DNA of 64,000 bases from Candidatus Ratteibacteria bacterium (lineage in GTDB: Bacteria > Ratteibacteria > UBA8468 > B48-G9 > DTJG01): positions 139,839 through 203,838 of the forward strand of contig JBBADJ010000002.1 of assembly GCA_041656495.1 (NCBI GenBank), written 5' to 3'. Below the pieces are notes generated by a model, which saw nothing but the letters and a program-made list of their open reading frames with translations, was not told the origin of the DNA and did not search any database. The position numbers and the translations under genes were made by a program. Below, in pieces: positions 3,882-26,830 of this stretch; position 1 is the stretch's first letter, and the number at the start of each line of letters is the position of its first letter.

Positions 3882-3915
3882 GAAAAGCCTTCCCGCTTCC
3901 GCTCTCTCATAAGAA

Positions 3916-5148
3916 TCATTCCTTTTTTTTCTCGTCGCAAGCAGGAAACTTTATAATAAAAATGGTTTTTCCTGACTTTTGAGCGCCGGAAATGCTTCCT
4001 TTGTGCATTTCTACAATCTTCTTAACAACAGAAAGACCAGTAACCGCGCGAGTACCTGTAAACGCCAGATTAGATGAAAAAAGAGAGGAAAAATCCGCAT
4101 CAGAAAAGCAATCTCCCGTATCCGCGCATTCCACTTCTATCTTTCCCTCTACTTTTCTGACACCTATTGAAATGGTGCCTATGCCATGGGTTGCTTGCAC
4201 CGCATTCAACAAAATTGTGGTAAAAACCTGATGAAGAAGGTCGGGATCTCCCTGTACAATCAAAAAATCCTGTTCAATCTCTTCTATAAATTTAATACGT
4301 CCGGCAATATCCGAGGCAGAGAGAAAAATAATACTTTTTCTAAGTAATAAAGGAATATCCACTTTCTGAAAAACTCGGCGGGGATGCGAAAAATGTACGA
4401 TGTTCTCTATGAACTTCTGGCATCGCTCAATCTCCTCTTCTATTAATTGAAAATAGCGAAGTTGAGCCCCCTGTTCCTTCTTTCCGTATCCGGAAAGTTC
4501 TTCTTTCAAAAGGTCTGTATATCCCTGAATAACCGTAAGGGGATTGCTGATTTCATCTATAAGATCTGCAGACAACTGGCCAACAGCCGCAAGGTTTTCA
4601 AGATGTTCCACCCGATCGTGCAACATTCTGTTCAAACAAGAAACCTTTTCGTTCAGACGGCGAAGGTTCTTTTCCTTTTTATGACGAGAGATAGCCGACA
4701 ACACAAGGGCCCGCATTTCTTCCACATCAAACGGTTTGCTTAGAAATTCCATGGCGCCAAGATGCATTGCGGCACGTGCAGTATCAATCGTTCCATATCC
4801 GGAAAGAATAAATACCGGTAATTCAGTATCTATGCTCCGTATCATTTTTAGTGTTTCAATACCATCGGCATCCGGCATTTTCAAATCAAGTATCACTATA
4901 TCAACCGTATGGTTTCTCAAAATATCCGATCCTTCCTGTCCTGACGCCGCAAGAAGAACTTTATGGGTATCTTTGAACATCATTCGCAAAGATTCCCGAG
5001 GACCGATTTCATCGTCTATTACCAAAATTGTATCTTCATTCCTATTCAATGAACCCTCCTGTAAGAAAAAAAATCTACCAGCGGTATCCAAAAGAAAGAA
5101 AGGTACCTCGCGAGGAGTACGAGCCATCATACGGCAGTCCCGACGCAA
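3916..5148 (-). CDS. Hybrid two-component protein: N-terminal receiver followed by HisKA and HATPase_c (REC-HK order)
   Basis: REC (ILVIDDEIGPRE...DLKMPDADG), HisKA (SADLIDEISNPLTVIQGYTDLL), ATP-binding lid (TGLSVVKKIVEMHKGSI). Start may be an internal Met around 5130. Confidence 0.8.
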   Translation of the reverse strand: MRRDCRMMARTPREVPFFLLDTAGRFFFLQEGSLNRNEDTILVIDDEIGPRESLRMMFKDTHKVLLAASGQEGSDILRNHTVDIVILDLKMPDADGIETLKMIRSIDTELPVFILSGYGTIDTARAAMHLGAMEFLSKPFDVEEMRALVLSAISRHKKEKNLRRLNEKVSCLNRMLHDRVEHLENLAAVGQLSADLIDEISNPLTVIQGYTDLLKEELSGYGKKEQGAQLRYFQLIEEEIERCQKFIENIVHFSHPRRVFQKVDIPLLLRKSIIFLSASDIAGRIKFIEEIEQDFLIVQGDPDLLHQVFTTILLNAVQATHGIGTISIGVRKVEGKIEVECADTGDCFSDADFSSLFSSNLAFTGTRAVTGLSVVKKIVEMHKGSISGAQKSGKTIFIIKFPACDEKKKE

Positions 5149-6301
5149 TCCTCCGCGTACCGTAAAAAATCATTGAAAGACTCCATTCACAACTGCCATG
5201 ACGGGTATGAAAAAGGTTCCCGACCGAAAGTATAGTCCTGTCAAGATCAGCAATAGTAGGCTCAAAGAATGCATTGGGAACAGGGCTCTTAATATGCGCA
5301 ATACCAGCCCGCCATATCTTCTCGGAAGAGGGCTTATATTCAAAACCAAGAGAAAAAGTAGCGCTATCTTTCCAGTTTCTCGGCTGATCCATTACTGTTA
5401 CTCCTTGCATACGTACAGGAACACTTTTCAAAGAAGAATATCCTGCCCATTCATAATCAAATTCTATCTTAAGAGCATCAATTGGATAGAATGCAATACC
5501 AGCGCCAGCTATCGCTGGAAATTTCATAGAGGTCCCTGCCGGCACTCCCGCCATCTGTTCAATCGTAAAATCTCCACTATACTCCATACTTGTTTCACAT
5601 CTATACCGCGCTCCTACGCGCCATGAAGACGCACGATAAAGCATCCCCGCCACAGGCGCTATCCCCCAATCATCTGCCTTTAATATTCCCGATGTTTCAA
5701 AGGAAAAGGGAGGCGATGGAATATCTACAAGAACACGCTGACTAATCTTTACCTTACTGTAATAGGTTTCAATGCCAAGACCTATTGAAAGAGCATCTGT
5801 TACCTGAAAAGCCGCCACTGCCGCAAGATTCGCAGTCTCCATTTCAGCGCCATAGGGTAAAGAGGTGCTTATTGCACCGGAACCAAATGGCAAAGGAGGA
5901 GAAAAACCCCAAGCGCGCACTGTCTCCACTGGCCATTTACTTCCCTGACCATAGGGAGAAGTTATTCCAAAACCAAGACGAATAGGAAATGATCCGGGAT
6001 CTGGAGAAAAATAGAAGGAAGGAAGAAGTGTTACTGTTCCTTCAGTAGAAGAAGAGAAAAAAGCGCCGTCATAGAATGTTTTTGCAGATACCATGGTAGC
6101 GCCAAACTCAAATGCAGTACCTTGCAACTGTATAAGACCTGCCGGGTTATGCGTTACCGCCGAAGGATCATCAGCCTGCGCGATAAATGCGCCAGCCTGA
6201 GCCATTGCTGAAGATCCTTCCGGCGGATTGCGATATCCCTGTGCAAAGAGAAGTCCCGCAAAAAAAAGAATGATACCCAACAAAGTTCCTACCTTCTTCA
6301 T
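5075..6301 (-). CDS. Outer membrane transport protein, FadL/OmpP1/TodX family (hydrophobic compound porin)
   Basis: Signal peptide MKKVGTLLGIILFFAGLLFAQG, then FadL-family N-terminal motif YRNPPEG...AQAGAFIAQADDPSAVTHNPAGL; C-terminal aromatic residue (…FGYRW). Start trimmed to MKKVGT. Confidence 0.7.
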   Translation of the reverse strand: MKKVGTLLGIILFFAGLLFAQGYRNPPEGSSAMAQAGAFIAQADDPSAVTHNPAGLIQLQGTAFEFGATMVSAKTFYDGAFFSSSTEGTVTLLPSFYFSPDPGSFPIRLGFGITSPYGQGSKWPVETVRAWGFSPPLPFGSGAISTSLPYGAEMETANLAAVAAFQVTDALSIGLGIETYYSKVKISQRVLVDIPSPPFSFETSGILKADDWGIAPVAGMLYRASSWRVGARYRCETSMEYSGDFTIEQMAGVPAGTSMKFPAIAGAGIAFYPIDALKIEFDYEWAGYSSLKSVPVRMQGVTVMDQPRNWKDSATFSLGFEYKPSSEKIWRAGIAHIKSPVPNAFFEPTIADLDRTILSVGNLFHTRHGSCEWSLSMIFYGTRRIASGLPYDGSYSSRGTFLSFGYRW

Positions 6302-6501
6302 GCTTCTCCCTTGTAAGAAATATATATATATATAATTTTTCACTCTTATTTTCATAGGAGTATATTCTTTTTTTCCTTCTTTGAAAAAAATTTCCTTCAA
6401 TTAACTCTTCTGCTTTCTTCTTTACTCTCTATATTTATAGTATGCAAAAAGTGTGCCAAGTAAGAAAAAAAAGAAATATTGTACATTTTTGATCAGAAAA
6501 A

Positions 6502-6530
6502 TTGACAGAATAAGGATAGCGGGATATTAT
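6502..6530 (+). promoter_or_regulatory. Sigma-70-like promoter (TTGACA-N17-TATTAT) ending about 9 nt before the radical-SAM gene's ATG (near-leaderless)
   Basis: Consensus -35, 17-nt spacer, AT-rich -10; lies in an AT-rich divergent region that also contains a (TA)7 tract. Confidence 0.35.
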
Positions 6531-6539
6531 CCGAATATT

Positions 6540-8174
6540 ATGGGAAGCAACTTCTTACTTGTTTCAATCGCAGGAAGACCGAAAAATCTCTCAGATTTTA
6601 TTCCTGACAATGGCCTCGCTTCTCTTGCCGCCACGCTTTCTGAAGAGAAAAACAGGGTTGTAATTCTTGATCTCAACAGCCCCTCCCTCTTCTCTCTTCT
6701 CTTTTCTCCCGCTATTGAAGCTAATCTTGAACAGATTGCGAAAAAAATCTTTCTCAATAAAGAAAAACCCTCTCTTATGGACATTTTTGTCCTAAAAAAA
6801 ATTGATCTTGCAATTGCAAAACGTATTCCCCATCTCTGCGCAGATCTTGAAGAGAAGATTGCGAAAGTCATAGAAACAGAAGATATTGATGTGATAGGCT
6901 TTAAATTATGGGCAGGAGAAGGGTTTTCATGGCTTTCTCAAATAGGGACAAATCTTAAAAAACGCTTCCCGGCACTCCTCTTTTTCGGAGGAGGCCCTCA
7001 AGTGGACATTTTTGAACATCTTATCTTCCGCAATCTTCCTTTTCTTGATGGACTATGCTATGGAGAAGGAGAAGAGACAATTCGGGAACTGGCCAAATAT
7101 GTACAGAATGGAAGAGATCCTTCCTCTATTCCCAATATGATATGGAAGGAGGGCACCAGTTATAAAAAAAATGAAAAGAAGATCATTTCGTCTCTTGATT
7201 CCCTTCCTTTCCCTCTCTATGATCCGGAGATATATAGAAATATTGAGAGTAAGATAAAAATGGTGGTAATAGATGAAAGCAGGGGATGCCCAAACCATTG
7301 CTTCTTCTGTATTCATCCGGTAAAGAGCGGGAAACGAAAAGAAAAAAGTCCTGAAAGAGTCGTAAAAGAAATGATGCAATCTAAAGAACGCCACAATATC
7401 CGGCTCTTTCGGTATGCGGGATCCAGCACCCCTCCGAACCTCCTTGAAAAGATCGCAATCCGCCTTATTGAAGAAAAAGCAGATCTACGTTATGCCTGTT
7501 TTGGAAGCGTGAAAGAATTTGCGGGAAAAGAGATCTTTCCCCTTCTGAAAAGATCAGGATGCGAAGCGCTCTTTTTTGGAATAGAAAGTGCCAGCGAAGA
7601 AATTCTAAAAAAAGCGATGAATAGAACTATCTCTGTTTCTGCCATGGAATCTGTCCTTGCTTCTTGTAAAAAAGCAGGCATATTTACCGTTGCAAGTATT
7701 ATTTATCCCGCACCCTTTGAGACCGAATCAACCCGCGAAAAAACCCTTGATTTTCTTACGAGAACACGACCAGATTCCGCTCTGATTCAATTTCCGGGAG
7801 TATACCCGAATACAAGGTGGTTTCATACACCAGAAGAGTTTGGCTTTTCTTTAAATAAAAAAAAGTATCCTCTTCAGGTAATGAACTATCAGTTCAAAGC
7901 CCTCTTCCCTCCGCGATACTGGAAAGCCCTCCCTTACAGAGTCAATGGAATGCCTTTTAAGAAGTATGCCGCGGAGACTGAGGCTTTTCAGCATGATGTT
8001 CACAATCTTGGAATACTCACCTCAGTATCGGACGAAACATACCTTCTCTACCGGCATAGCGGCGAAGCTTCTCTTAATACCTTTCTTGATAAGAATCGGT
8101 ACGCCTTCTATGCGGGTCAACGAGAACTCCTTGAAGAAGAGATTTGTACCATTAATGCCGCGAAAACTCCATGA
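6540..8174 (+). CDS. B12-binding-domain radical SAM protein (class B rSAM), function unknown
   Basis: N-terminal cobalamin-binding-like Rossmann region (LVSIAGRPKN...GLASLAATLSEEKNRVVILDLN; FFGGGPQV), then radical SAM Cx3Cx2C (SRGCPNHCFFC); long C-terminal domain of unknown function. Start at Met 6540 chosen because the upstream part of the ORF covers a promoter-like element. Confidence 0.75.
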   Translation: MGSNFLLVSIAGRPKNLSDFIPDNGLASLAATLSEEKNRVVILDLNSPSLFSLLFSPAIEANLEQIAKKIFLNKEKPSLMDIFVLKKIDLAIAKRIPHLCADLEEKIAKVIETEDIDVIGFKLWAGEGFSWLSQIGTNLKKRFPALLFFGGGPQVDIFEHLIFRNLPFLDGLCYGEGEETIRELAKYVQNGRDPSSIPNMIWKEGTSYKKNEKKIISSLDSLPFPLYDPEIYRNIESKIKMVVIDESRGCPNHCFFCIHPVKSGKRKEKSPERVVKEMMQSKERHNIRLFRYAGSSTPPNLLEKIAIRLIEEKADLRYACFGSVKEFAGKEIFPLLKRSGCEALFFGIESASEEILKKAMNRTISVSAMESVLASCKKAGIFTVASIIYPAPFETESTREKTLDFLTRTRPDSALIQFPGVYPNTRWFHTPEEFGFSLNKKKYPLQVMNYQFKALFPPRYWKALPYRVNGMPFKKYAAETEAFQHDVHNLGILTSVSDETYLLYRHSGEASLNTFLDKNRYAFYAGQRELLEEEICTINAAKTP

Positions 8175-9400
8175 AAAAATATCGTACCGCAATCACTGGA
8201 ATCGGGGTCATTGCCCCAAATGGTACGGGTATTCACCAATACTGGGAAGCGTTAAAAGCAGGAGAAAGCGGTATTACAAGGATAACTGCATTCAATCCAG
8301 ATCCTTTTCCTTCTCAAATTGCAGGTGAAATAAAAGGATTCCAACCTGATGATTTTATGGATAAAAAAAGCTGTCGGCGTATGTCCCGCACCTCGCAATT
8401 TGCAGTCGCATGCGCCCGCATGGCATTGGATAACGCACAACTTGCTCCACAAGATATTTCAGAAGATCATGGACAGATCATATTAGGAGTTAGCACCAGT
8501 GCCATGGAGTTGATAGAACGCCAACATACTGTGCTTGCCTCCAAAGGTCCTTCCAAAATTCTTCCTTTTGGAATCCTTGCCGCAACTCCACACAGCACCA
8601 CCGGTGAAGTTATTGCGGCACTCGGGTTGAACGTGCCGGCTACCACGCTTGCAACCGGATGTGCCTCGGGTCTTGATGCCATTGGAACAGGATGGAAAAA
8701 AATCTCTACCGGCGAAGCAGAAATTGTTCTTTGCGGTGGTGCTGACGCTCCTATTACTCCACTTATTCTTGCAGGACTCTGCGCAGCCAATATAGTGTCC
8801 CGGCATAACAATCCGCCAGAAGAAGCAAGCCGGCCTTTTGACCTTACCCGAGATGGCGGAGTTCTCGCGGAAGGAGGAGGAATCCTTATTCTTGAAGCTA
8901 TGGACCGCGCTCGTATGCGAGGAGCGCCTATCTATGCAGAATTGGTTGGATACGGACAATATGGAGACGGAAAGGAAAAAAAAACTGGAAACGGTCTCCG
9001 GCACACTATGCGTCAAGCACTCTACACCGCGGGACTTTCAACAGGTGCTATCGGCCATATCTCTGCTCACGCTCCTTCTGATCCTCTTCTTGATTCCGTA
9101 GAAACAGAGGCAATCAAGGAGATCTTTGGACCACGCGCCTATCGTATTCCTCTCACTTCAATCAAATCAATGATTGGGAATCCCTTTGGCTCTATTGGAG
9201 TCTTTCAAACTGCGGCCGCGGCTATGTCCCTACAAGAAGGAGTTATTCCTCCTACCATCAATTATCATCATCCCGACCCTAACTGCGATCTTGATTATAC
9301 TCCGCTCTTCGCGCGCCGTTTCAACGCAGAGTACGCTCTTATCAACTCGCATGGCTTTGGAGGAAGCAATGCAAGTCTTCTTATAAAAAAAGCGCCATGA
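8171..9400 (+). CDS. Beta-ketoacyl-ACP synthase (FabF/KAS II-like condensing enzyme) with variant catalytic triad
   Basis: Full-length thiolase-fold KAS homolog (ITGIGVIAPNG..., active-site Cys in TGCASGLDAIG, first His in SAHAPSDP, C-terminal NSHGFGGSNASLLIKK). The second catalytic His of FabF (…TGHLLGAAG…) reads IGNPFGSIG. Overlaps the upstream gene by ATGA. Confidence 0.85.
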   Translation: MKKYRTAITGIGVIAPNGTGIHQYWEALKAGESGITRITAFNPDPFPSQIAGEIKGFQPDDFMDKKSCRRMSRTSQFAVACARMALDNAQLAPQDISEDHGQIILGVSTSAMELIERQHTVLASKGPSKILPFGILAATPHSTTGEVIAALGLNVPATTLATGCASGLDAIGTGWKKISTGEAEIVLCGGADAPITPLILAGLCAANIVSRHNNPPEEASRPFDLTRDGGVLAEGGGILILEAMDRARMRGAPIYAELVGYGQYGDGKEKKTGNGLRHTMRQALYTAGLSTGAIGHISAHAPSDPLLDSVETEAIKEIFGPRAYRIPLTSIKSMIGNPFGSIGVFQTAAAAMSLQEGVIPPTINYHHPDPNCDLDYTPLFARRFNAEYALINSHGFGGSNASLLIKKAP

Positions 9401-11883
9401 TATCCTATCAGGTTTCACTCCTTCTTACCGCGGGAATCAATATCCTTTTTGCAATTTCTGTCTATGTAAAAAATCAACACCGCCTTTCCAACAGAGTCTT
9501 TCCTCTTTCTTCTCTTAATCTCGCGTTATGGTGTTTTTCAACATTTGCGATTGTATCGTCCCATTCCACCACACAAGCAGAAATAGCCATACGGATTGCC
9601 TGCTCTATAGGAGCTTTTCTTCCGGCGAACTTCCGTTTTTTCGTTGATACCCTAGGACGTCCCCAAGAGCCCTTTTCTCTCCGCCAAAAAAGAGTTCTCA
9701 CGCTCTTTTATCTTTTGGGTATCTGTCTTGCCGCCATAACATGGCTCCCCAATTTTATCCGTTCGGTTGAGTTTTCTCCTCCTGGTGTTTTTGTCGATCT
9801 TCCAGGACCAGAAGCACAATATGACGGACCACTTTTTTTCCTTTATTCCTTTGGAACTCTTCTTCTGATGGCAGAAGCATTGTTCCGCCTCTTTCAAAAA
9901 ACACATACCTCGCACGGAATCTTTCGCCTTGAAGTACAATATGTCTTTATCGCTATCCTCTCGGGAACGATCTTTGTCGCGGGAACCTCTCTCTTTCCCG
10001 CACTTTTAGGAAGCACACTCTTAAGTAGGTTCGCGCCATTCTCTTCTGTCATCATGACAGGGATTATTTCGTATGCTATCGCCCGGTACCATATATTGGA
10101 TATTTCTATTGTCTTTGAAATGACAACCCTTGCGATCCTTGTAACAGGAGTGCTTCTTCTCTTCTATCTCGCCAGTACCCTGCTTCTCACAAAAATTCAA
10201 TATATATTTCTCCTTTCTCCTTCCTATAGTTCCATCCCTATACTCTTTAGTGCCTTCGCAGTCGCACTTCTATATACTCCTGTAAAAAAATTCATTCAGA
10301 ACCTCGCACTTCACCGGATTTTCCCTCCCAAAATAGATACTGGAGAGATCTCCAAAGAACTTACGGCAACACTCTTTTCACATATAGAATTCTTTGGCTT
10401 TTTCAATGATATTTCCCGTCTTCTCAGTAGTAAACTTCACATTCCCGAAACCATGGGACTCATTCTTCCCCCTTCCACTCCTCAAGAACCCTCCATTCAA
10501 ACTCTTCCCGCCACATGGTCTCTTGAACATTCCTCTGATTCTTCTATCCTTGCCTCGTTCCAAAAAGAGAAAAAAGCTCTTATCAGAGAAGAGTTAGAAC
10601 GATTTCCCCATATTGAAAGCAACCTCAAAATCATCCAGGAGTTTAAGAAGAACGGCTTTGATCTTGCGGTTCCGATTCTCCAAAGAGAAACAGTCTTCGG
10701 CGCAATCCTTTTTCGTAATAAACATTCACAAACACTCTTCACAAGACAAGAACTTCTTCTTCTTGAGAATATCGGACTACAACTCGGCATTGCAATAGAA
10801 AACCTTGCTCTTTACAGAAGACTCTCTAGACTTCATCTTTATCAGGACAGTCTTCTTGAAAACTCACCGAGCGGAGTAATTGGAATAGATGCGGATAACC
10901 GAGTAATTATCTTCAACAGAGAAGCAGAGCGCCTTACCGGGTATCAACGCTCCTCAATGCTTGGGAAAGAGTATAATGCCCTTCCTGAAGAGTTAAAAGA
11001 GATCGTCTTTTCTGTAAGAGAATCACAGCAAAATATCAGGGGCGTTGAAAGAACGGTTCTGAATAGAGAAAAAAATATTCCTCTTCAGGTACTTATGCAT
11101 ACCTCTGCCTTTTATGACAGCCATAAAAAGTTTCTTGGAATCCAGTTGATCTTTTCCGATATCACGCCGATGAAAAATCTTAAAGAGAATATCGCTCGCA
11201 CAGAACGGCTCGCTTCCATTGGAATCCTTGCGGCGGGGCTTGCGCATGAAATTAAAAATCCCCTTGTTTCAATACGAACCTTTGCGCAACTTCTTCCTCA
11301 AAAATTTGAAGACGCGGAGTTCCGAGAAGTCTTCTCAAAACTTGCCATCCAAGAAGTAAATAAAATTAATAGCTTAGTAGAAGCAATCCTTGCCTTTGCA
11401 AAACAAAAACCTCCTGAATTCCGAGAAGTATCCCTCGGAGATATTATCCGCGACACTCTTCTTCTGATAGGAATTCAGAAAAATAATATTCAGGTCTCTT
11501 TTACAGAACTGGATGGAAAAAAAACCGCTCTGTTAGATGCAGATGCGGAAAAATTAAAACAGGTCTTTCTAAACCTTATTCTCAACAGCCGTGACGCAAT
11601 GCCCAAGGGAGGAGATCTTTCCATTACCATTACCGAGGAGAACAATCACCTCAAAACAGTACTGTCAGATACAGGATCCGGAATAGAAGAAGCCCTTATT
11701 GAAAAAATATTTGACCCCTTCTTTACTACAAGAGAAAAAGGAACAGGACTCGGTCTTTCTATTGTTGCCACCATTATCCATGAACATCATGGTACAATCT
11801 CTATAACAAGCTTGCCTTCAACAGGCACTACGGTCTCTATTGAACTTCCAAAACATCAGTCGGAAGAAGGACAGCCTCTATGA
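9397..11883 (+). CDS. Membrane sensor histidine kinase (multi-TM N-terminal domain, GAF/PAS, HisKA, HATPase_c)
   Basis: About 280 aa polytopic N-terminus (7TM-type HK sensor); PAS region; HisKA H-box LAHEIKNPLVSIRTF; G-boxes DTGSGI and GTGLGLSIV. Confidence 0.85.
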   Translation: MISYQVSLLLTAGINILFAISVYVKNQHRLSNRVFPLSSLNLALWCFSTFAIVSSHSTTQAEIAIRIACSIGAFLPANFRFFVDTLGRPQEPFSLRQKRVLTLFYLLGICLAAITWLPNFIRSVEFSPPGVFVDLPGPEAQYDGPLFFLYSFGTLLLMAEALFRLFQKTHTSHGIFRLEVQYVFIAILSGTIFVAGTSLFPALLGSTLLSRFAPFSSVIMTGIISYAIARYHILDISIVFEMTTLAILVTGVLLLFYLASTLLLTKIQYIFLLSPSYSSIPILFSAFAVALLYTPVKKFIQNLALHRIFPPKIDTGEISKELTATLFSHIEFFGFFNDISRLLSSKLHIPETMGLILPPSTPQEPSIQTLPATWSLEHSSDSSILASFQKEKKALIREELERFPHIESNLKIIQEFKKNGFDLAVPILQRETVFGAILFRNKHSQTLFTRQELLLLENIGLQLGIAIENLALYRRLSRLHLYQDSLLENSPSGVIGIDADNRVIIFNREAERLTGYQRSSMLGKEYNALPEELKEIVFSVRESQQNIRGVERTVLNREKNIPLQVLMHTSAFYDSHKKFLGIQLIFSDITPMKNLKENIARTERLASIGILAAGLAHEIKNPLVSIRTFAQLLPQKFEDAEFREVFSKLAIQEVNKINSLVEAILAFAKQKPPEFREVSLGDIIRDTLLLIGIQKNNIQVSFTELDGKKTALLDADAEKLKQVFLNLILNSRDAMPKGGDLSITITEENNHLKTVLSDTGSGIEEALIEKIFDPFFTTREKGTGLGLSIVATIIHEHHGTISITSLPSTGTTVSIELPKHQSEEGQPL

Positions 11884-13814
11884 ATTATGTGATTGTTTCC
11901 ACAAATGAAAAAGCAATAAGCCATGCAATACGTATTGTATTAAAAGAGAAGTATGTGGTGGAGGAAGTTCCTTACACTCTTCTCTGTGAAACAATCGTGG
12001 CCCGCAGACCAGGGGCTGTCATCTTTGATGCAGACGATCATGGAGAGCTTACTCCTGAACGATTACTATCTCTTTTTTCTATTGATCCCTCCCTTACCGT
12101 TATTCTTTTAGCAGATCGGCTGAATAACACTATGGAAAAAGCCCTTGAAACAGGAGCCTTTGAGATTATTGAAAAACCTTTTCAATCTCTTCGCATTCTC
12201 CATACTGTAAAACGGGCGATTGTGCACGATACCTTCTCCCGGCAGAAGGATTCTCCGCATTCCACACCTTTTTCCGAAACCTCGCTCTCAATAACCTCCC
12301 GCGATACAACAACTTTTTTTGAAGAACTCTCTCAAACAATCGCCTCTTGTATGGATAGCCCGGAACATCTTCTTTCTGAAACATTTCTTCTTCTCCGAAA
12401 ATATCGCCATACAGCAAAAACCGCTTTTTTCCTCCGAAAAAACAGCCAATTTATTCCCATTGCATCTCTTGGAATAGATGACAAATTTCTCTCTGAAATT
12501 CTTGTACCATCTACACACCCTCTCATAGAATGGTTTTCCAGAAAAACCTGTATGGTAGCGGTGGAAAATCCTGACATGAACCCTGCTATCCGTTCCTTGC
12601 TTGAAATGTGCAATGTGCAATGTGCCTTCCCCTGTATCTCCTTTAATGGAACCCTTATTGGATTCCTTCTTACTGGAGGACCTGTCACGGGAAGAGCGTT
12701 GGTAGAGCAGGATATCTCTTTTTTTACAAGTTTCTCTGATTTTTTAACTACCGCCATTGAAAATATAGGGTTACAACAGGAAATTATTGCCCAAAAAAAC
12801 TATCAGGAAGCCATTGTAACCAATGTTCCCAGCGGTATTATCGGAGTAAATGAAGAAGGTAAAATCATTGTATGCAATGAAAGCGCCCATACTATTTTCG
12901 GCATTGACCAATCCGAAGGAATAGGCTCTCCGATAGAACGGCTTGGCGCTCCTGTTGCCGATGTTATCCGTCAAACCCTTGATTCTCAAGAACCTATTGT
13001 ACGGAAGGAACTTCTTCTCTCTCCAGAAAAAATCATTATCGGAATAAGCACCAACCCCATTGTTTCAGAAGGTACACTTCAGGGAGCGGTGGCAATATTT
13101 CAAGATCTCAGCGCTATCAAAGTGTTGGAGGCAAAAGAACGCGAGGTAGAACGCAACGGGTATCTGAACTCTTTAGCATCCCGGCTTTCTCATGAACTGA
13201 AAAATCCCTTAGTCGCTATTAAAACCTTTTCTCAGTTACTTCCTGAAAAATTTGACGATCAGGAATTTCGTACCTCCTTTGCAAAGATTGTACAAGACGA
13301 AATCACAACAATCAATATGATTATAGAAAATATCAGTAAACTTGCGGAGACCCGTTCATTTCATACAAGCGAATTTGATCTTGTTGATTTTTTACATACC
13401 CTCCGCGGCACCTATGAAACAGATAGGCGTACTCCAAATGTTTCGTTTCAAATTGAAAAACAGAGTTCTTTCCCTATTGCCGGAGATCCGCTCCGTATCA
13501 ATGAAGCCATCGGCCATCTTATCTCATTTTTTCAAGAGGAAGAAAACAATGCTTTCGTCACAATCAAGGCAGATACAGAGGACTCTTCCTTCCTTCTTGA
13601 GGTATCTGGAAACTGCCACAAGAACCGGACGAACGACAATCTCCTCTCTTCTTTCGCGCCTGAATTAAAACAGATCGCTTCTATTGGAGTGATTCTTGCT
13701 AAAAAAATATTTGAAGCCCACCACGCTGATTTTTCTGTAACACAGAATCAGAACAAAACCTCTTTTCTTACCCGTATTCCCCGTTCTTCTCATGGCAAAA
13801 ATATTAATCGTTGA
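11880..13814 (+). CDS. Histidine-kinase paralog with N-terminal receiver-like domain, GAF/PAS, HisKA and a degenerate ATP-binding domain (possible pseudokinase or phosphotransfer protein)
   Basis: H-box LSHELKNPLVAIKTF is paralogous to the upstream HK; the C-terminal domain lacks canonical DxGxG and GxGLGL G-boxes (EVSGNCHK; ASIGVILAKKIFEAHH); receiver-like N-terminus lacks the acidic DD pair (VIVSTNE). Confidence 0.7.
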   Translation: MNYVIVSTNEKAISHAIRIVLKEKYVVEEVPYTLLCETIVARRPGAVIFDADDHGELTPERLLSLFSIDPSLTVILLADRLNNTMEKALETGAFEIIEKPFQSLRILHTVKRAIVHDTFSRQKDSPHSTPFSETSLSITSRDTTTFFEELSQTIASCMDSPEHLLSETFLLLRKYRHTAKTAFFLRKNSQFIPIASLGIDDKFLSEILVPSTHPLIEWFSRKTCMVAVENPDMNPAIRSLLEMCNVQCAFPCISFNGTLIGFLLTGGPVTGRALVEQDISFFTSFSDFLTTAIENIGLQQEIIAQKNYQEAIVTNVPSGIIGVNEEGKIIVCNESAHTIFGIDQSEGIGSPIERLGAPVADVIRQTLDSQEPIVRKELLLSPEKIIIGISTNPIVSEGTLQGAVAIFQDLSAIKVLEAKEREVERNGYLNSLASRLSHELKNPLVAIKTFSQLLPEKFDDQEFRTSFAKIVQDEITTINMIIENISKLAETRSFHTSEFDLVDFLHTLRGTYETDRRTPNVSFQIEKQSSFPIAGDPLRINEAIGHLISFFQEEENNAFVTIKADTEDSSFLLEVSGNCHKNRTNDNLLSSFAPELKQIASIGVILAKKIFEAHHADFSVTQNQNKTSFLTRIPRSSHGKNINR

Positions 13815-15153
13815 CGATGAAACAAATGTACGGGAATCTCTAAGATTCGCCTTAAAAGATCAGCATACGATCCGGTTTGCGGATTCAGGAGACAAGGCAT
13901 TGAAAGAGATTGCCTATAATCAGCCAGATCTTGTGATTCTTGATATTATGATGCCTGGAAAAAGTGGAATTGATACGCTTCGTGAAATCAAAAGGGATTA
14001 CGCGCATATCTCGGTAATCATGCTAACTGCCGCTGCCGACCTCTCCACAGCTATCAACGCCATGAAACTCGGCGCCAGCGATTATATTACCAAACCGTAC
14101 GATGTGGAGGAGCTTCTCTTTCAAATAGAAAAGATTATAGAACAAAGAAAACTTCATCAGAAAATCGGGTTGCTTCAAGAAGAAGTTGAAAGAGAATATC
14201 CGGTTGCTTCTTTCATCTTCCAAAGCAAAAAGATGAAGGAAGTTCTTGATATCGCAAAAAAAGCCGCTCCAACGGAAAGCTCCATTATTCTTACTGGACC
14301 CACTGGTGTCGGAAAAGAACTTGTAGCCCGTTTTATCCATACCAATAGCACGCGAGAAAAAGAGCCCTTTATCGCAATACATTGCGCCGCAATTCCAGAT
14401 ACACTCTTTGAAAGCGAACTCTTTGGCTACGAACGAGGCGCCTTTACTAATGCATTCAAAAGAAAACCCGGAAAGATAGAGATGGCCGCAGAAGGAACCA
14501 TCTTTCTTGATGAAGTCAATGAAATTCCTTCTCTTCTACAGGTAAAGCTTCTTCGGTTTCTTCAAGAAAAAAAATTCTCCCGCCTCGGAAGCAATGAACT
14601 TCTTTCAAGTAATGCCCGCATTCTTTCCGCCTCCTCGCAATCCATTACACCGCCCCATAAGACTTTTCGCGAGGATCTTTACTACCGACTTAGCGTGGTG
14701 CCGATAGCAATTCCGTCCCTTACAGAACGGAAAGAAGATATTGTTCCTATCGCAGAATATTATATTGAACAGTTTGCGAAAAAATATAAAAGCCGCGCTA
14801 AAACCCTTTCATTTGAAGCAGAAAAGGCCTTTCTCGCCTATCCATGGCCAGGAAATGTACGAGAATTAAAGAATGTTATTGAACGCTCCCTTGTTCTCCG
14901 TCGCGACGCGGAAAAGATTGACATAGAAACTCTTCCTTCTGAAATTTCTGAAAACTCTCTTCTTCCTTATAAAGAACTCTCTCTTGAAGAAGAGGTCCGT
15001 CAACTTGAAACCACACGGATACTTCATGCGCTTACACAAGAAAAAGGGAATCAGGTAAAGACTGCGAAACGACTCGGAATCACCAGACGAATTCTTCGGT
15101 ATAAGATGGAAAAATTACAGATTGCCTGCGAACAACAAGACCCTAACGCATAA
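13792..15153 (+). CDS. Sigma-54-dependent response regulator (NtrC family: REC, AAA+ sigma-54 activator, Fis-type HTH)
   Basis: REC (KILIVDDE...LDIMMPGKSG), Walker A GPTGVGKE, GAFTGA-like motif reading GAFTNA, arginine finger region, C-terminal HTH (QVKTAKRLGITRRILRYKM). Confidence 0.88.
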   Translation: MAKILIVDDETNVRESLRFALKDQHTIRFADSGDKALKEIAYNQPDLVILDIMMPGKSGIDTLREIKRDYAHISVIMLTAAADLSTAINAMKLGASDYITKPYDVEELLFQIEKIIEQRKLHQKIGLLQEEVEREYPVASFIFQSKKMKEVLDIAKKAAPTESSIILTGPTGVGKELVARFIHTNSTREKEPFIAIHCAAIPDTLFESELFGYERGAFTNAFKRKPGKIEMAAEGTIFLDEVNEIPSLLQVKLLRFLQEKKFSRLGSNELLSSNARILSASSQSITPPHKTFREDLYYRLSVVPIAIPSLTERKEDIVPIAEYYIEQFAKKYKSRAKTLSFEAEKAFLAYPWPGNVRELKNVIERSLVLRRDAEKIDIETLPSEISENSLLPYKELSLEEEVRQLETTRILHALTQEKGNQVKTAKRLGITRRILRYKMEKLQIACEQQDPNA

Positions 15154-15173
15154 GAAAGAATTCTTCTGATTGT

Positions 15174-15197
15174 AGAGAGAGTTCTCTTTTTTTTTCA
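15174..15197 (+). terminator. Weak intrinsic terminator after the sigma-54 response-regulator gene
   Basis: AGAGA-gagt-TCTCT short hairpin followed by T9; also adjacent to the convergent gene's stop. Confidence 0.25.
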
Positions 15198-16595
15198 CCG
15201 CGAAAGATCGGCAAAGAGTTTCTTAACTCCCTCTATTACTATCCCTTCTGCCCGTTCGTCTACCACACATCCCAAATAGGACGTTTCATAACTGGCATCA
15301 ATACCAATCGCCTCATCAAGCGGAGTGGCATGAAACTCTTCTTCCCGAACAGAAAGGTTGAATGTCCTCTCCTTAAAAGCTTTTGCCGTAGGAATATATC
15401 CAAGGACCGCATTGCAATTTTCTACGATCATTGTCTCCTCAAAAGAGCTATCTTCCCGAAACGCAAAACCTGTTTCTGTAAAGATCTCGCCAGAGGTACA
15501 GAGAAATGCGCACTTTTTATCAAGACCTACCAGAAACAAAGAGTGTTCAAGGGGACTCTTCTCTTCCATCTGCATAAAAAGCGCCTTCGCGACAAGTGCC
15601 CGCAATGTTCCCGGAAATGCCTCTATATTGATTTTGGCAGATTCAATTTCTTTATCAGTAAAAGTTCTACGAGGAATTGAAAGTGTCTTCTCCGCAAGAA
15701 AGAGAGAATTTACCGGCGAAAGGGTCTGCAAAGAAGTAAGAATACCGGAAGCGCTCCGGCCTAATGCCTCAGCTATCTTTTCACCAATATCTGAAGAACG
15801 GGTTTCACTATCAAAAGGATCCAAGAACGCAATATCTCCGCAAGCATCGTTAAAGAGTATTACAGGAACTCCATACTCTTCTGAAAGAAGGTCTCGGGTC
15901 ATTGAAGGCCAATCACCTGAAATTTCTGTACCGCCCAAAGTATCTGGATGATTGCCATAATTCAACGCGATCGCCTTTAGAAAACCTGTATCATCGGCGA
16001 TTTTTAAGAGGCTGAGTTTGGAAGAGACCGGACCCGCGGGACCAATAATTTCTTGGGGTTGCGTGGGATTTGTTACCACCCTCCCATCTCGCAAACGATA
16101 CCGTCTGTTGAATGAAAATCCATCCACATCAACAGAACCACACCCTATCGTTGCCGGAAACCTACTATCATACGCTTCCCTCATCGCATCAACAATCTGC
16201 GTTCTAAGGTATCCGGGATACTCGTCGGAAATCGTAAAGTTTTCTGTGTAAACCGCCTTATAAGAATGATCGGGAAGTGGACCGGTATGGGTATGGGTCG
16301 CATGAAGTGTAATATGAAGAGAGGAGGAAGGGATCTTTTTTCGGGCAATCTGTTTCACATCGCGCCAAAGGCATTCGCCGGCCCAGATCAAGTCTAACGC
16401 CACTATAAATGCTGTGGTGGTTCCATCATCAAAACAGAGTGCGATCGCCTTCAAATCATCGCGTATCCCAGAAGCAGGTCTTGGAGAAAAATAACCCACC
16501 AAAGAAGAACCTAAAGGAGGAGTGATAATCCGTTCAGCAATACCTATCCGTACCATTTGATAACTCCCGTATAAGAGAGAAAAGCGCTTCTTCAA
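15195..16595 (-). CDS. Neutral/alkaline ceramidase N-terminal-domain-like hydrolase (uncharacterized)
   Basis: N-terminal pattern RIGIAERIITPPLGSSLVGY...GIRDDLKAIALCFDDG...IVALDL resembles the conserved N-terminal block of non-lysosomal ceramidase-family proteins (GxA..DITPP.G..L.GY...G..D.L.A.AL..DDG...V..DL); assigned from memory of the family, not searched. Confidence 0.4.
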   Translation of the reverse strand: MKKRFSLLYGSYQMVRIGIAERIITPPLGSSLVGYFSPRPASGIRDDLKAIALCFDDGTTTAFIVALDLIWAGECLWRDVKQIARKKIPSSSLHITLHATHTHTGPLPDHSYKAVYTENFTISDEYPGYLRTQIVDAMREAYDSRFPATIGCGSVDVDGFSFNRRYRLRDGRVVTNPTQPQEIIGPAGPVSSKLSLLKIADDTGFLKAIALNYGNHPDTLGGTEISGDWPSMTRDLLSEEYGVPVILFNDACGDIAFLDPFDSETRSSDIGEKIAEALGRSASGILTSLQTLSPVNSLFLAEKTLSIPRRTFTDKEIESAKINIEAFPGTLRALVAKALFMQMEEKSPLEHSLFLVGLDKKCAFLCTSGEIFTETGFAFREDSSFEETMIVENCNAVLGYIPTAKAFKERTFNLSVREEEFHATPLDEAIGIDASYETSYLGCVVDERAEGIVIEGVKKLFADLSR

Positions 16596-26706: not shown

Positions 26707-26830
26707 TGCCCCTGGCAACACCTACTCTCCCGTTCACTCTCGTAAACAGTACCATCGGCGCTGGAGGGCTTAACGACCGTGTTCGGGATGGGAACGGGTG
26801 TGGCCCCTCCGCCATGATTGCCAGAGGCAA
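26707..26830 (-). rRNA. rrf: 5S ribosomal RNA
   Basis: The reverse complement contains the conserved 5S loop and helix blocks CCCGTTCCCATCCCGAACACGG…GTTAAGCCC…AGCGCCGATGGTACTG…GGGAGAGTAGGT, and closes a 12-bp helix I between its 5' UGCCUCUGGCAA and 3' UUGCCAGGGGCA ends. About 123 nt. No 16S or 23S gene is adjacent. Confidence 0.9.

Follow-up and report, generated by a model that had tools for sequence, protein, structure and literature searches.

A conserved ketosynthase–kinase module of uncultivated bacteria with a possible role in lipid-linked signalling

In the window (the whole stretch of 64,000 nucleotides analyzed here), five overlapping genes join a radical SAM enzyme (rSAM) and a ketosynthase (KAS) to three regulatory proteins, which raises the question of what these enzymes do in the company of their own sensors. 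The ORF check confirmed that the region 6540-15153 holds five co-directional genes, arranged head-to-tail on one strand as a preliminary description had proposed, with exactly the following coordinates:

6540-8174, plus strand, rSAM, gene 1 of the operon
8171-9400, plus strand, KAS, gene 2
9397-11883, plus strand, 7TM kinase, gene 3
11880-13814, plus strand, second kinase, gene 4
13792-15153, plus strand, NtrC-type activator, gene 5

The overlaps that had been described are real, but they were miscounted, since five genes form four junctions rather than "the first four" and a last one: 3 are ATGA overlaps (at 8171, 9397, and 11880), and the second kinase and NtrC-type activator share a 23-nt overlap (13792-13814). 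Inside the operon, neither terminator-like matches (13 versus a shuffled expectation of 13.1) nor promoter-like matches (22 versus 21.5) that might separate the genes were found in excess. Because the genes overlap and a terminator signal is absent, co-transcription and translational coupling of all five are plausible. The best consensus match to a promoter within 3500-16800 precedes the rSAM gene:

6502-6530, plus strand, sigma-70-like promoter TTGACA-17-TATTAT (11/12 consensus positions)

By consensus match only, this is a candidate promoter of the operon, whose transcription is predicted to be of a non-sigma-54 type. Because its end and the rSAM ATG are 9 nt apart, the mRNA would be near-leaderless.

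The radical SAM enzyme and the ketosynthase

The assignment of gene 1 as a B12-binding rSAM was borne out by its Pfam domains (B12-binding and Radical_SAM, with the CxxxCxxC motif at C250/C254/C257) and by the class-B fold matches of its AF2 model (pLDDT 93.9), the best Foldseek matches being TsrM, MgmA, OxsB, CysS, AprD4, and TokK. Judging from their PDB titles, TokK and CysS were crystallized with pantetheine-linked substrates. No curated family cutoff of NCBIfam was reached by the rSAM: the best match was the PhpK family (123 versus a cutoff of 600), and TIGR04072 (74 versus 360), HpnJ (83 versus 578), and HpnR (47 versus 650) were also below cutoff. According to the model, the rSAM is a class-B (cobalamin-domain) enzyme of an uncurated family. 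Among the candidates scored, 898 homologs were found at E <= 1e-10. In place of the KAS, a FeeM-type N-acyl amino acid synthase is the partner of the rSAM in Brocadiia/Phycisphaerae-type loci, which points to an acyl chain as the substrate of the rSAM; no kinase is present within 10 kb of these FeeM-coupled homologs.

The description of the KAS as FabF-like holds for its fold (ketoacyl-synt N- and C-terminal domains), but not as an assignment of orthology. Its score against TIGR03150 was 399 bits (cutoff 494), the catalytic triad in the window is Cys164-His300-Asn337, and in the alignment to B. subtilis FabF, GH is changed to GN. Within a family of 50 sequences, all of which are rSAM-linked, the catalytic Cys (Cys164), His303, Asp311, and Lys335 were each found in 50/50, whereas His340 is replaced by Asn (36), Gln (7), or Ser (6); the family signature is CHPDKNPH, compared to CHTTKHLL in true FabF. 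FabF orthology was ruled out based on this exchange of the second catalytic His and the Cys-His-Asn signature, and by sequence the KAS represents a distinct, neofunctionalised subfamily of FabF-like ketosynthases. The preliminary description had also considered that both enzymes might belong to well-characterised, unrelated pathways. With all NCBIfam equivalogs far under cutoff, these scores place neither in a characterised pathway. Together with the KAS signature, the class-B fold of the rSAM, and the genomic context described below (KAS-to-7TM-kinase adjacency, lineage-dependent tailoring enzymes, and coupling of the rSAM to FeeM-type synthases), they mark both as dedicated rather than housekeeping enzymes.

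Regulatory proteins and the extent of the module

The 7TM kinase combines HisKA_7TM, GAF, PAS, HisKA, and HATPase_c domains, with at least 7 hydrophobic segments in residues 1-300. The second kinase is soluble (REC-like-(GAF)-PAS-HisKA) and shares 27% identity with it (E = 3e-32). The domain search detected no HATPase_c in the second kinase, whose N, G1, and G2 boxes are lost, while it retains the H-box His and its REC-like domain has a conserved acceptor Asp. This agrees with its earlier description as a degenerate paralog and marks it as a pseudokinase in this window; the loss is limited to this Omnitrophota-type clade, and loci with other labels, among them Verrucomicrobiota and Chlamydiota, have kept the boxes intact. 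The NtrC-type activator (REC, Sigma54_activat, and HTH_8 domains) scored below the cutoffs of AtoC (394 versus 714) and PrsR (370 versus 503), and its sigma-54 contact loop is GAFTNA, with GAFTGA, GAFTDA, and GAFTSA as further variants in the activator family. Upstream of the operon, the window encodes:

1116-2519, minus strand, REC-DUF3369-HD-GYP response regulator of the c-di-GMP phosphodiesterase type (Pfam HD_5, 128 bits)
2670-3881, plus strand, rpoN, sigma-54 (Pfam Sigma54_AID, CBD, and DBD; TIGR02395, 277.8 versus a cutoff of 277.35)
3916-5130, minus strand, soluble REC-HisKA-HATPase_c hybrid kinase ('RRHK', here REC-kinase; Pfam)
5075-6301, minus strand, FadL/TodX-family outer-membrane channel for hydrophobic molecules (Toluene_X, 127 bits versus a cutoff of 29.7)

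As the preliminary description had noted, FadL is divergent from the five-gene operon and rpoN lies in the same window. The N-terminus of FadL resembles a signal peptide, no TM segment was found in the REC-kinase, and rpoN, which is convergent with the REC-kinase gene, bounds the module on the left in this lineage.

The comparison of loci delimits a unit of 7 to 8 genes, from rpoN to NtrC, rather than the 5 originally proposed, with rpoN, the REC-kinase, and FadL as additional members. Dozens of independent loci show linkage of these genes, and the gene set recurs in rearranged order in loci whose labels span at least 8 phyla (Omnitrophota, Ratteibacteria, Chlamydiota, Verrucomicrobiota, Kiritimatiellia, Lentisphaerae, Zipacnadia, and Armatimonadota), all carriers being uncultivated. 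Anchoring the search on the KAS in place of the rSAM recovered the module again. By this comparison, the arrangement is far beyond chance, and because linkage is so strongly conserved, the tests named in the preliminary description, including a lack of co-localisation elsewhere, failed to refute the association. In the window, the rpoN-to-NtrC block is inverted as a single piece relative to its relatives, which parts the REC-HD-GYP regulator from NtrC and the second kinase; in relatives, it lies directly 3' of one or the other.

The invariant core consists of the KAS, the 7TM kinase, the second kinase, and the REC-kinase. The KAS lies immediately 5' of the 7TM kinase in 39/42 loci, both the 7TM kinase and the REC-kinase are kept in every variant, and the latter is located 3' of the FadL homolog (full-length in 45 loci) on the same strand wherever FadL occurs. 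rpoN adjoins the REC-kinase in about 20 Omnitrophota-type loci; at this position, the NtrC-less loci L012 and L024 have no rpoN. Tailoring enzymes vary by lineage: L085 and L072 carry a further B12-rSAM, and the variant devoid of rSAM has a LanB-N-like protein. That variant also lacks FadL and NtrC, and the first catalytic His of its KAS is replaced by Tyr (Cys-Tyr-Asn); FadL is also absent from Zipacnadia/Armatimonadota-type loci. The module lacks any release step such as a thioesterase, ACP, or exporter. The downstream gene described as a ceramidase-like hydrolase is a weak call (N-terminal part of Ceramidase_alk only, 22.5 bits versus a cutoff of 32.1; no NCBIfam match) and was rejected as a member, as it travels with ispG and belongs to the flank.

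The sigma-54 promoter and its operator

Between the divergent FadL and rSAM genes, and within the latter, the following sites were identified:

6443-6458, minus strand, sigma-54 promoter TGGCACACTTTTTGCA (-24 GG / -12 GC), oriented toward FadL, the only perfect match in the 64 kb
6480-6495, unstranded, predicted operator/UAS for the HTH_8 regulator, TGTACATTTTTGATCA, TGT-N10-ACA type (PWM 20.3 bits, rank 2 in the window)
6778-6793, 7003-7018, and 7090-7105, unstranded, three operator-like sites within the rSAM coding region (PWM ranks 3, 1, and 5 in the window)

A sigma-54 promoter upstream of FadL was found in 38/46 loci (0.044 expected per 450 nt) and in the independent locus L084. It co-varies with NtrC (18/18 versus 0/4; Fisher p = 1.4e-4), and NtrC, promoter, operator, and neighbouring rpoN are jointly present or jointly absent across loci. 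In loci with scannable regions, the scan revealed no such promoter ahead of a module-linked rSAM or of any KAS. By this distribution, the sigma-54 promoter drives the operon formed by FadL (gene 1) and the REC-kinase (gene 2), not that of the rSAM and KAS, which argues that the enzymes are expressed along with the sensors rather than being what the system regulates. Of the proposed autoregulation through sigma-54, the involvement of sigma-54, with its syntenic rpoN, is upheld, but the target is the FadL/REC-kinase operon. The only rSAM with an upstream sigma-54 site is a stand-alone copy (L055).

The TGT-N10-ACA motif occurs in 33/38 sigma-54-type FadL upstream regions, which are of the same kind as those from which the PWM was derived; this is mitigated by building the PWM from other loci only, leaving out the window, and by two further loci, as the motif gave the top two matches in L084 and the top match upstream of the KAS in L085, a locus whose second kinase carries the HTH_8 domain as a fusion. 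With about 22 nt between it and the -24 element, the nearest predicted operator in the window is closer than is usual for an activator that acts by looping. The sites inside the rSAM (codon positions +238, +463, and +550) score >= 15 bits in 14/14 relatives of this clade classed as NtrC-type or undetermined and in 1/7 NtrC-less relatives. They are possibly distal enhancer sites; however, they overlap conserved 'DIF' codons, so that protein-level constraint is an alternative explanation.

Possible functions of the module

We tentatively read the module, at somewhat less than an even chance, as a self-contained lipid-linked signalling circuit for a DSF/CAI-1-like lipid signal or cue. The KAS would convert acyl-ACP to an acyl-derived hydrophobic small molecule, which the rSAM would tailor; C-methylation of an unactivated carbon, or a comparable reaction there, is the most likely modification. 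Sensing of this product in the membrane would fall to the co-translated 7TM kinase, possibly with a contribution of the PAS/GAF kinase, and phosphoryl groups would flow to NtrC and, in relatives, also to the REC-HD-GYP c-di-GMP phosphodiesterase. Phosphorylated NtrC, bound to the operator, would then activate sigma-54 transcription of FadL, the putative outer-membrane passage for the hydrophobic ligand, and of the REC-kinase, which could extend or damp the relay. This logic resembles the fatty-acid-type cell-cell signalling of DSF/Rpf and CAI-1/CqsS-LuxO, although the enzymes differ: the DSF system comprises a multi-TM kinase (RpfC), a soluble PAS kinase (RpfS), and a REC-HD-GYP regulator (RpfG), and its synthase physically interacts with the sensor (PMC4504480). 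In rhizobia, FadL homologs are reported to modulate long-chain AHL signalling (PMC9938287). Since the synthase genes lack a sigma-54 promoter, classical positive feedback on signal synthesis would be absent. This lack of feedback, the missing release step, the rSAM-less Cys-Tyr-Asn variant, the FeeM-coupled rSAMs without a kinase, and the closeness of the operator to the -24 element speak against a signal circuit.

An unlikely but appreciable alternative is that the KAS-like protein makes no signal. It would instead bind acyl-ACP or an imported fatty acid, or accept an acyl group from either, and inform the 7TM kinase of the fatty-acid status of the cell, with the relay tuning FadL uptake of exogenous fatty acids and the rSAM being accessory. 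The KAS-to-7TM-kinase adjacency with its ATGA coupling is the most invariant feature of the module, the regulated output is an uptake-type channel, and in Xylella signal transduction persists with an RpfF that is catalytically dead (PMC4504480); the rSAM-less Cys-Tyr-Asn variant would be no harder to explain by such a non-catalytic co-sensor than by a synthase. However, the invariant catalytic residues, including His303 in all 50 rSAM-linked sequences, suggest that catalysis is retained, a co-sensor needs neither a conserved class-B rSAM nor lineage-specific tailoring enzymes, and the other partner of the rSAM is a biosynthetic N-acyl synthase.

Rather improbable is the model of the preliminary description, in which an unusual envelope lipid is the joint product of rSAM and KAS, and the kinases sense the membrane and auto-regulate its remodelling via sigma-54. 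Pairs of class-B rSAM and KAS are known from lipid clusters (NCBIfam TIGR04072, a weak match here), the 7TM sensor is membrane-embedded, and sigma-54 and NtrC are present, but enzymes that are not under sigma-54 control fit poorly with such a remodelling effector, the output being FadL and a kinase. Glycerolipid, ACP, Fab, and flippase genes are unlinked in every variant, the enzymes are almost always beside kinases and never beside lipid genes, TIGR04072, HpnJ, and HpnR stay below cutoff, and the tetraether synthase fold is not among the top 50 PDB matches (Foldseek) of the rSAM. Nothing tested points specifically to envelope lipids, and the anatomy is closer to DSF/CAI-1 lipid-signal circuits. 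Catabolic operons under sigma-54 control encode the FadL-type channels XylN and TbuX, a precedent for the sensing of an exogenous hydrophobic substrate (hydrocarbon, sterol, or long-chain fatty acid) that induces FadL-type uptake as in sigma-54-controlled aromatic-hydrocarbon operons, with KAS and rSAM processing the import. The FadL-family channel is indeed under a sigma-54/bEBP promoter; yet we consider this very improbable, as catabolic genes (beta-oxidation, oxygenases, and glycyl-radical enzymes) are unlinked in every variant, condensing enzymes are biosynthetic, and KAS and kinases persist where FadL is absent.

The curated libraries and papers that were searched contained no description of this module, which is conserved across many uncultivated bacterial phyla and may serve lipid-linked signalling.

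Gene content and extent of the module

The preliminary description had reported a five-gene operon (6540-15153), and all five open reading frames sit where it placed them, with predicted domains as claimed (Pfam, NCBIfam). Its account of the junctions was right in kind and off by one in number: the ATGA overlaps (at 8171, 9397 and 11880) and the 23-nt overlap (13792-13814) are real, but five genes have four junctions, three of them ATGA. FadL is indeed transcribed divergently from the operon, a sigma-54 factor is encoded in the same window, and the proposed check for an internal promoter or terminator returned terminator-like and sigma-70-like matches within the operon at the shuffled expectation, without excess. 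All module proteins are predicted to be soluble, save the 7TM kinase and FadL. The latter passed the Pfam cutoff (127.1 vs 29.7) and fell below that of the equivalog model for E. coli FadL (57.6 vs 585).

Table. Genes and predicted promoters and sites of the module (window coordinates)
1116-2519, minus strand: gene for a REC-HD-GYP regulator, in relatives part of the operon
2670-3881, plus strand: rpoN, sigma-54 gene
5075-6301, minus strand: FadL, Toluene_X-type outer-membrane channel (PF03349)
6443-6458, minus strand: predicted sigma-54 promoter TGGCACACTTTTTGCA, in the FadL-rSAM spacer, facing FadL
6480-6495: predicted operator (TGT-N10-ACA)
6502-6530, plus strand: sigma-70-like promoter TTGACA-17-TATTAT, strongest such site in 3500-16800
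6540-8174, plus strand: rSAM, radical SAM enzyme with B12-binding and Radical_SAM domains (Pfam)
6778-6793, 7003-7018 and 7090-7105: intragenic operator-like sites in the rSAM coding sequence
8171-9400, plus strand: KAS, FabF-like ketosynthase with ketoacyl synthase N- and C-domains
9397-11883, plus strand: 7TM kinase, HisKA_7TM-GAF-PAS-HisKA-HATPase_c
11880-13814, plus strand: HK2, the second kinase, PAS-HisKA, in which an ATPase domain was not detected
13792-15153, plus strand: NtrC, REC-Sigma54_activat-HTH_8

The near-consensus sigma-70-like promoter ends 9 nt 5' of the rSAM ATG, and Shine-Dalgarno sequences are absent before the rSAM, KAS, 7TM kinase and NtrC starts; a partial AAGGA precedes the HK2 start and GGGAG precedes FadL. 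The promoter distance together with the absence of Shine-Dalgarno sequences suggests that the first gene of the operon is leaderless and that coupling is of the reinitiation type. A GTG at 6453 was rejected as the rSAM start, since the reading frame would then cross both promoter and operator, and homologues begin at the equivalent of 6540. An Rfam search over the whole window revealed no riboswitch or leader near the operon. Its sole match was a lone 5S rRNA gene elsewhere (26710-26825, minus strand, 99.5 bits), which is apparently unlinked; no 16S, 23S or tRNA gene was found within the 64 kb.

Among the scored candidates, 898 are homologues of the rSAM at E <= 1e-10, and almost all of these come from metagenome-assembled genomes (MAGs). 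A scan with one genome per species yielded 150 loci; the 80 best were retrieved and compared with the window proteins by tblastn, revealing three arrangements.

Table. Gene arrangements in related loci (angle brackets point in the direction of transcription; Cer-like, ceramidase-like gene; 7TM-HK, 7TM kinase)
Omnitrophota-type loci, also labelled Ratteibacteria, TA06 and Elusimicrobia, left part: Dxr RseP IspG Cer-like, then RpoN> <REC-kinase <FadL
The same loci, right part: rSAM> KAS> 7TM-HK> HK2> NtrC>, then REC-HD-GYP> MreB>
Loci labelled Verrucomicrobiota, Kiritimatiellia, Lentisphaerae and Victivallales: rSAM> <REC-kinase <FadL KAS> 7TM-HK> HK2> NtrC>
Zipacnadia/Armatimonadota-type loci: rSAM> <REC-kinase <HK2 <7TM-HK <KAS, without FadL and NtrC

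Relative to the order in L017, L067, L084 and other loci, the stretch from rpoN to NtrC (2670-15153) is inverted en bloc in the window against its flanks (71-2519 and 15195-19805), which carry MreB and the REC-HD-GYP regulator on the left and the ceramidase-like gene and IspG on the right. Since this block was inverted as one piece, rpoN to NtrC is the unit, and the ceramidase-like gene belongs to the ispG flank. The latter gene was rejected as a module member, as it adjoins ispG whether ispG sits to the left or to the right of the module. Its description as a ceramidase-like hydrolase (15195-16556) is weak: it scored 22.5 bits against a PF04734 cutoff of 32.1, over the N-terminal 150 residues, and had no NCBIfam match. 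Inverted repeats were not found at the borders of the inversion.

A second, independent search was anchored on KAS instead of rSAM (loci L082-L087). It recovered the full module in L084, while L085 has no NtrC; there, HK2 (12752-14998) is a REC-GAF-PAS-HisKA-HATPase-HTH_8 fusion, followed on the same strand by the REC-HD-GYP regulator and FadL. The remaining four loci (L082, L083, L086 and L087) encode KAS, 7TM kinase, HK2 and REC-kinase without rSAM, FadL and NtrC, and their KAS has a Tyr at the first catalytic His. Owing to these variants, the invariant core is defined as the KAS-like protein, the 7TM kinase, the second kinase and the REC-kinase.

Several further observations were made in these loci. 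In the four rSAM-less loci, a ~740-aa protein with a weak match to the LanB N-terminal domain and a ParA-like ATPase follow the REC-kinase. MAG ELA529 has two module copies on separate contigs (L060, L061), and the rSAM of L050 is split over two reading frames by a frameshift or an assembly error. Large secreted DUF4838 proteins are encoded in the window (28211-30265, plus strand) and right beside the module in L084 (1-2800).

Promoter and operator architecture

Predicted sigma-54 promoters were defined by TGGCAC-N5-TTGCW, with GG-N10-GC, upstream of a gene, in the presence of an activator and rpoN. The candidate promoter facing FadL has all these features and is the sole perfect sigma-54 consensus in the 64-kb window. 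Of 46 loci with a FadL homologue, 38 have a sigma-54 motif within 450 nt 5' of it, compared to 0.044 expected. In L022 and L023, the -12 element is a TTGA variant. With up to 1 mismatch allowed, no such motif was found upstream of a module-linked rSAM or any KAS; the sole rSAM with an upstream sigma-54 motif stands alone, outside the module (L055). Counting only loci whose contig permits a decision, the promoter is present in 18/18 loci with a full NtrC and 0/4 NtrC-less loci (Fisher p = 1.4e-4). The NtrC-less subclade has no rpoN beside the REC-kinase and a short spacer devoid of promoter and operator elements.

By its domain set, NtrC is an NtrC-family bacterial enhancer-binding protein, as predicted from scores above all Pfam cutoffs (REC 103, sigma-54 AAA+ 200, HTH_8 40 bits). 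Its sigma-54 contact loop reads GAFTNA in the window (residues ~216-221), and within the family GAFTGA (9), GAFTNA (9), GAFTDA (2), GSFTGA (1) and GAFTSA (1) occur; sigma-54 promoters are kept in the GAFTNA loci.

Furthermore, a palindromic motif, TGTACAAAATTGTACA (TGT-N10-ACA), is conserved upstream of the sigma-54 promoters in 33/38 regions, most often at a distance of 100-130 nt from the -24 element, with a median score of 18.4 bits vs 6.6 for the 95th percentile of controls. When the window was scanned with a position weight matrix built without it, 6480-6495 ranked 2nd of all window positions, and ranks 1, 3 and 5 (7003, 6778 and 7090) all fell within the rSAM coding region. In L084, the FadL-rSAM spacer contains the two top-scoring sites of 19 kb, beside a perfect sigma-54 promoter; in L085, with its HK2-HTH_8 fusion, the highest score (22.8 bits) falls immediately 5' of KAS; and in the HTH_8-less variant, no site above 10 bits was found. 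The predicted operator motif thus follows the HTH_8 domain of the module regulators.

From this architecture, we infer that NtrC~P would activate FadL and the REC-kinase. Since the predicted operator at 6480-6495 abuts the -35 element of the sigma-70-like promoter, NtrC may in addition influence the operon that encodes it. Relatives of the window's clade have the intragenic sites at identical codon positions (+238, +463 and +550), and sites of at least 15 bits are present in 14/14 loci with NtrC or with undecidable NtrC vs 1/7 NtrC-less loci. They overlap conserved Asp-Ile-Phe codons, and may represent dual-use coding DNA or a by-product of these codons.

Enzymes and kinases of the module

The rSAM passed the cutoffs of PF02310 (44.1 vs 32.1) and PF04055 (74.3 vs 29.5), has an invariant CxxxCxxC motif (C250/C254/C257) and carries its own conserved C-terminal domain of ~130 residues. 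Its sequence matches to solved structures are remote. For its AF2 model (pLDDT 93.9), the nearest structures found by Foldseek were TsrM, MgmA, OxsB, CysS, AprD4 and TokK, all of class-B type; for TsrM, MgmA, OxsB, CysS and TokK, E = 1e-15 to 1e-20, TM 0.52-0.62 and identity 15-18%. Shared with these enzymes are a Rossmann B12-type domain at the N-terminus and a radical SAM barrel. By domains and modelled fold, rSAM is thus a predicted class-B (cobalamin-type) enzyme, with cobalamin binding and methyl transfer being putative. AprD4 has the same fold, uses no cobalamin and is not a methylase; therefore, the chemistry of rSAM is not readable from its fold.

No curated NCBIfam family reached its cutoff for rSAM (score/cutoff: TIGR04072, 74/360; HpnJ, 83/578; HpnR, 47/650; PhpK, 123/600; BchE, 73/481), and roles corresponding to the hopanoid, BchE or PhpK families were rejected, as all scores are far below cutoffs. 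A synthase of tetraether or membrane-spanning lipids was likewise rejected, since no such fold is among the top 50 PDB matches. A RiPP methylase role was considered on account of weak matches to rSAM_ocin_1 and ApyD; the overlapping genes of the operon leave no space for a precursor ORF, and rSAM is partnered by acyl enzymes.

Without the module, rSAM occurs in loci labelled Brocadiia, Phycisphaerae and, in some cases, as archaeal. In six such loci (L045, L044, L039, L065, L054 and L049), a FeeM-type N-acyl amino acid synthase (PF21926, 127 bits; 11638-12225 in L045) directly follows rSAM. As its two alternative partners both use acyl-ACP, this argues that rSAM acts on an acyl chain. The FeeM-type synthase weakly resembles autoinducer synthases and the PEP-CTERM-associated acyltransferase, and the pair in L045 lies among AIPR and PD-(D/E)XK genes. 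MAGs labelled Woesearchaeota, Aenigmatarchaeota and Methanosarcinales account for the rSAM loci L027, L044, L049, L051, L054, L058, L065 and L069. The FeeM-like gene of L044 is 80% identical to that of L045, which is labelled Phycisphaerae; the archaeal-labelled contigs reflect mis-binning or recent transfer.

KAS shares ~40% identity and the fold with FabF, scoring below the cutoff of the FabF equivalog TIGR03150 (399.2 vs 493.75) and barely above that of the broad subfamily NF005589 (390.5 vs 387). Compared to B. subtilis FabF, Cys164 and His300 are kept and the second catalytic His is Asn337; the window KAS thus lacks the Cys-His-His triad of FabF / KAS II. Across 50 module KAS, Cys164, His303, Lys335 and Asp311 are invariant, while position 340 has Asn (36), Gln (7) or Ser (6) instead of His, which is kept in 1. 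Thr305 is Pro in 42, and Thr307 has given way to Asp in 32 and to His in 10. In place of the HGTST of FabF, the family has H(A/G)P(S/G)D. In a comparison of the 120 best database matches, the signature CHPDKNPH is cleanly apart from the FabF signature CHTTKHLL, and in a third type, CYPHKN, the first His is missing too. The module KAS never sits in a fab operon and nearly always adjoins a kinase, being immediately 5' of the 7TM kinase in 39 of the 42 loci with enough sequence to judge.

The 7TM kinase has at least 7 hydrophobic segments, a marginal match to PF16927 (31.9 vs 28.6) and HisKA (44 bits) and HATPase_c (90 bits) domains. HK2 is a paralogue of its cytoplasmic part (27% identity, E = 3e-32), with a REC-like N-terminus that keeps the acceptor Asp and a universal H-box His; the loss of its ATP-binding boxes is confined to the window's clade, and they are intact elsewhere. 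REC-kinase and NtrC have canonical receiver residues.

Relation to known systems and possible function

Each part of the module comes from a known superfamily, and no part scores high enough for membership of a named orthologous family (FabF, AtoS/AtoC, PrsK/PrsR, LuxO, TIGR04072, HpnJ/R and PhpK were compared). In CqsA/CqsS-LuxO of Vibrio, the CAI-1 synthase gene adjoins that of a multi-TM receptor kinase, and a sigma-54-dependent NtrC-family regulator stands at the end of the relay. Differences are that CqsA belongs to the PLP-dependent acyl-CoA transferases, that the relay passes via LuxU and that its targets are the Qrr sRNAs. Our NtrC is not a LuxO orthologue (311 bits vs a cutoff of 800). 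TIGR04072, a "lipid biosynthesis B12-binding/radical SAM protein" of the ladderane-associated cluster, likewise pairs a class-B rSAM with a FabF-like enzyme; unlike that cluster, the module has kinases instead of linked ACP/FabZ. PrsK/PrsR combine a multi-TM kinase and a sigma-54 NtrC-type regulator with an acyl-transfer enzyme, but the PEP-CTERM models all scored below cutoff (TIGR02916, 82 vs 300; TIGR02915, 370 vs 502.6; TIGR03694, 35 vs 112), and exosortase or PEP-CTERM genes were not seen. AtoS (305 vs 646) and AtoC (394 vs 714) are the best-scoring named models for the C-terminal kinase half and the activator, differing in the input domain and in the lack of ato genes here.

The closest resemblance is to Rpf/DSF of Xanthomonas, in which a gene for a fatty-acid-pathway enzyme likewise lies beside that of a multi-TM sensor kinase (RpfC), with an additional soluble PAS kinase (RpfS) and a REC-HD-GYP regulator (RpfG), and in which the DSF synthase binds to the sensor and can also play a role that needs no catalysis (PMC4504480). 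The REC-HD-GYP counterpart is at 1116-2519 here and within the operon in relatives. However, RpfF is a crotonase, compared to a Cys-His-Asn ketosynthase and a class-B rSAM in the module, RpfC is a 5-TM hybrid, compared to a HisKA_7TM input, and the NtrC/sigma-54 branch with its FadL target sets the module apart. No crotonase domain was found in any module gene, and the REC-HD-GYP type of regulator is the one part in common; the resemblance is functional, not one of membership or shown orthology. In rhizobia, FadL homologues are reported to modulate signalling by long-chain AHLs (PMC9938287). No description of the module was found in the literature searched.

Gene content, coupling, conservation and the co-varying promoter and operator architecture are established by sequence comparison, and would describe a lipid-linked two-component/sigma-54 circuit that brings with it a predicted operator and two enzyme subfamilies lacking a curated model. 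By analogy, we tentatively read the module as a lipid-signal circuit, nearest in function to DSF signalling, a reading that we put somewhat short of an even chance. KAS and rSAM would make and tailor an acyl-derived hydrophobic molecule, which the co-translated 7TM kinase would perceive; a relay via HK2, NtrC, the REC-kinase and, in relatives, the REC-HD-GYP regulator would then switch on FadL for outer-membrane passage and adjust c-di-GMP. Since all carriers are uncultivated, chemistry and ligand are put forward as hypotheses. It is possible, if doubtful, that the module represents a hitherto unrecognised family of lipid-autoinducer (quorum-sensing-type) systems in Omnitrophota, Ratteibacteria, PVC and neighbouring lineages, in which a signal made by KAS and rSAM would act through the 7TM kinase on FadL, as the signal channel, and on c-di-GMP hydrolysis by the REC-HD-GYP regulator.

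The rSAM-less variant with a Cys-Tyr-Asn KAS favours a KAS-like protein that serves as a trigger enzyme or co-sensor of acyl-ACP or fatty-acid status, a reading that we consider unlikely. Against the model of the preliminary description, envelope-lipid remodelling by rSAM and KAS, stand the facts that the two enzymes are not the sigma-54 output and that lipid-assembly genes are never linked to them, which renders this explanation improbable. Uptake of an exogenous hydrophobic nutrient is very improbable, with no catabolic genes present and FadL dispensable in some variants.

To our knowledge, next to nothing has been described of cell-cell or lipid signalling in Omnitrophota, Ratteibacteria and most uncultivated PVC lineages, for which the lipid-signal circuit proposed here provides a sequence-defined handle, consisting of an enzyme pair, a receptor kinase, a predicted TGT-N10-ACA operator and a sigma-54 promoter. 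It also adds an uncurated subfamily of FabF-like ketosynthases whose second catalytic His is exchanged for Asn, Gln or Ser, and an uncurated class-B rSAM family, whose partner is either that ketosynthase or a FeeM-like N-acyl synthase. Moreover, rpoN lies beside the module in Omnitrophota-type genomes and is gone from there in those NtrC-less loci that could be examined, which suggests that sigma-54 in Omnitrophota-type genomes may serve mainly this circuit.
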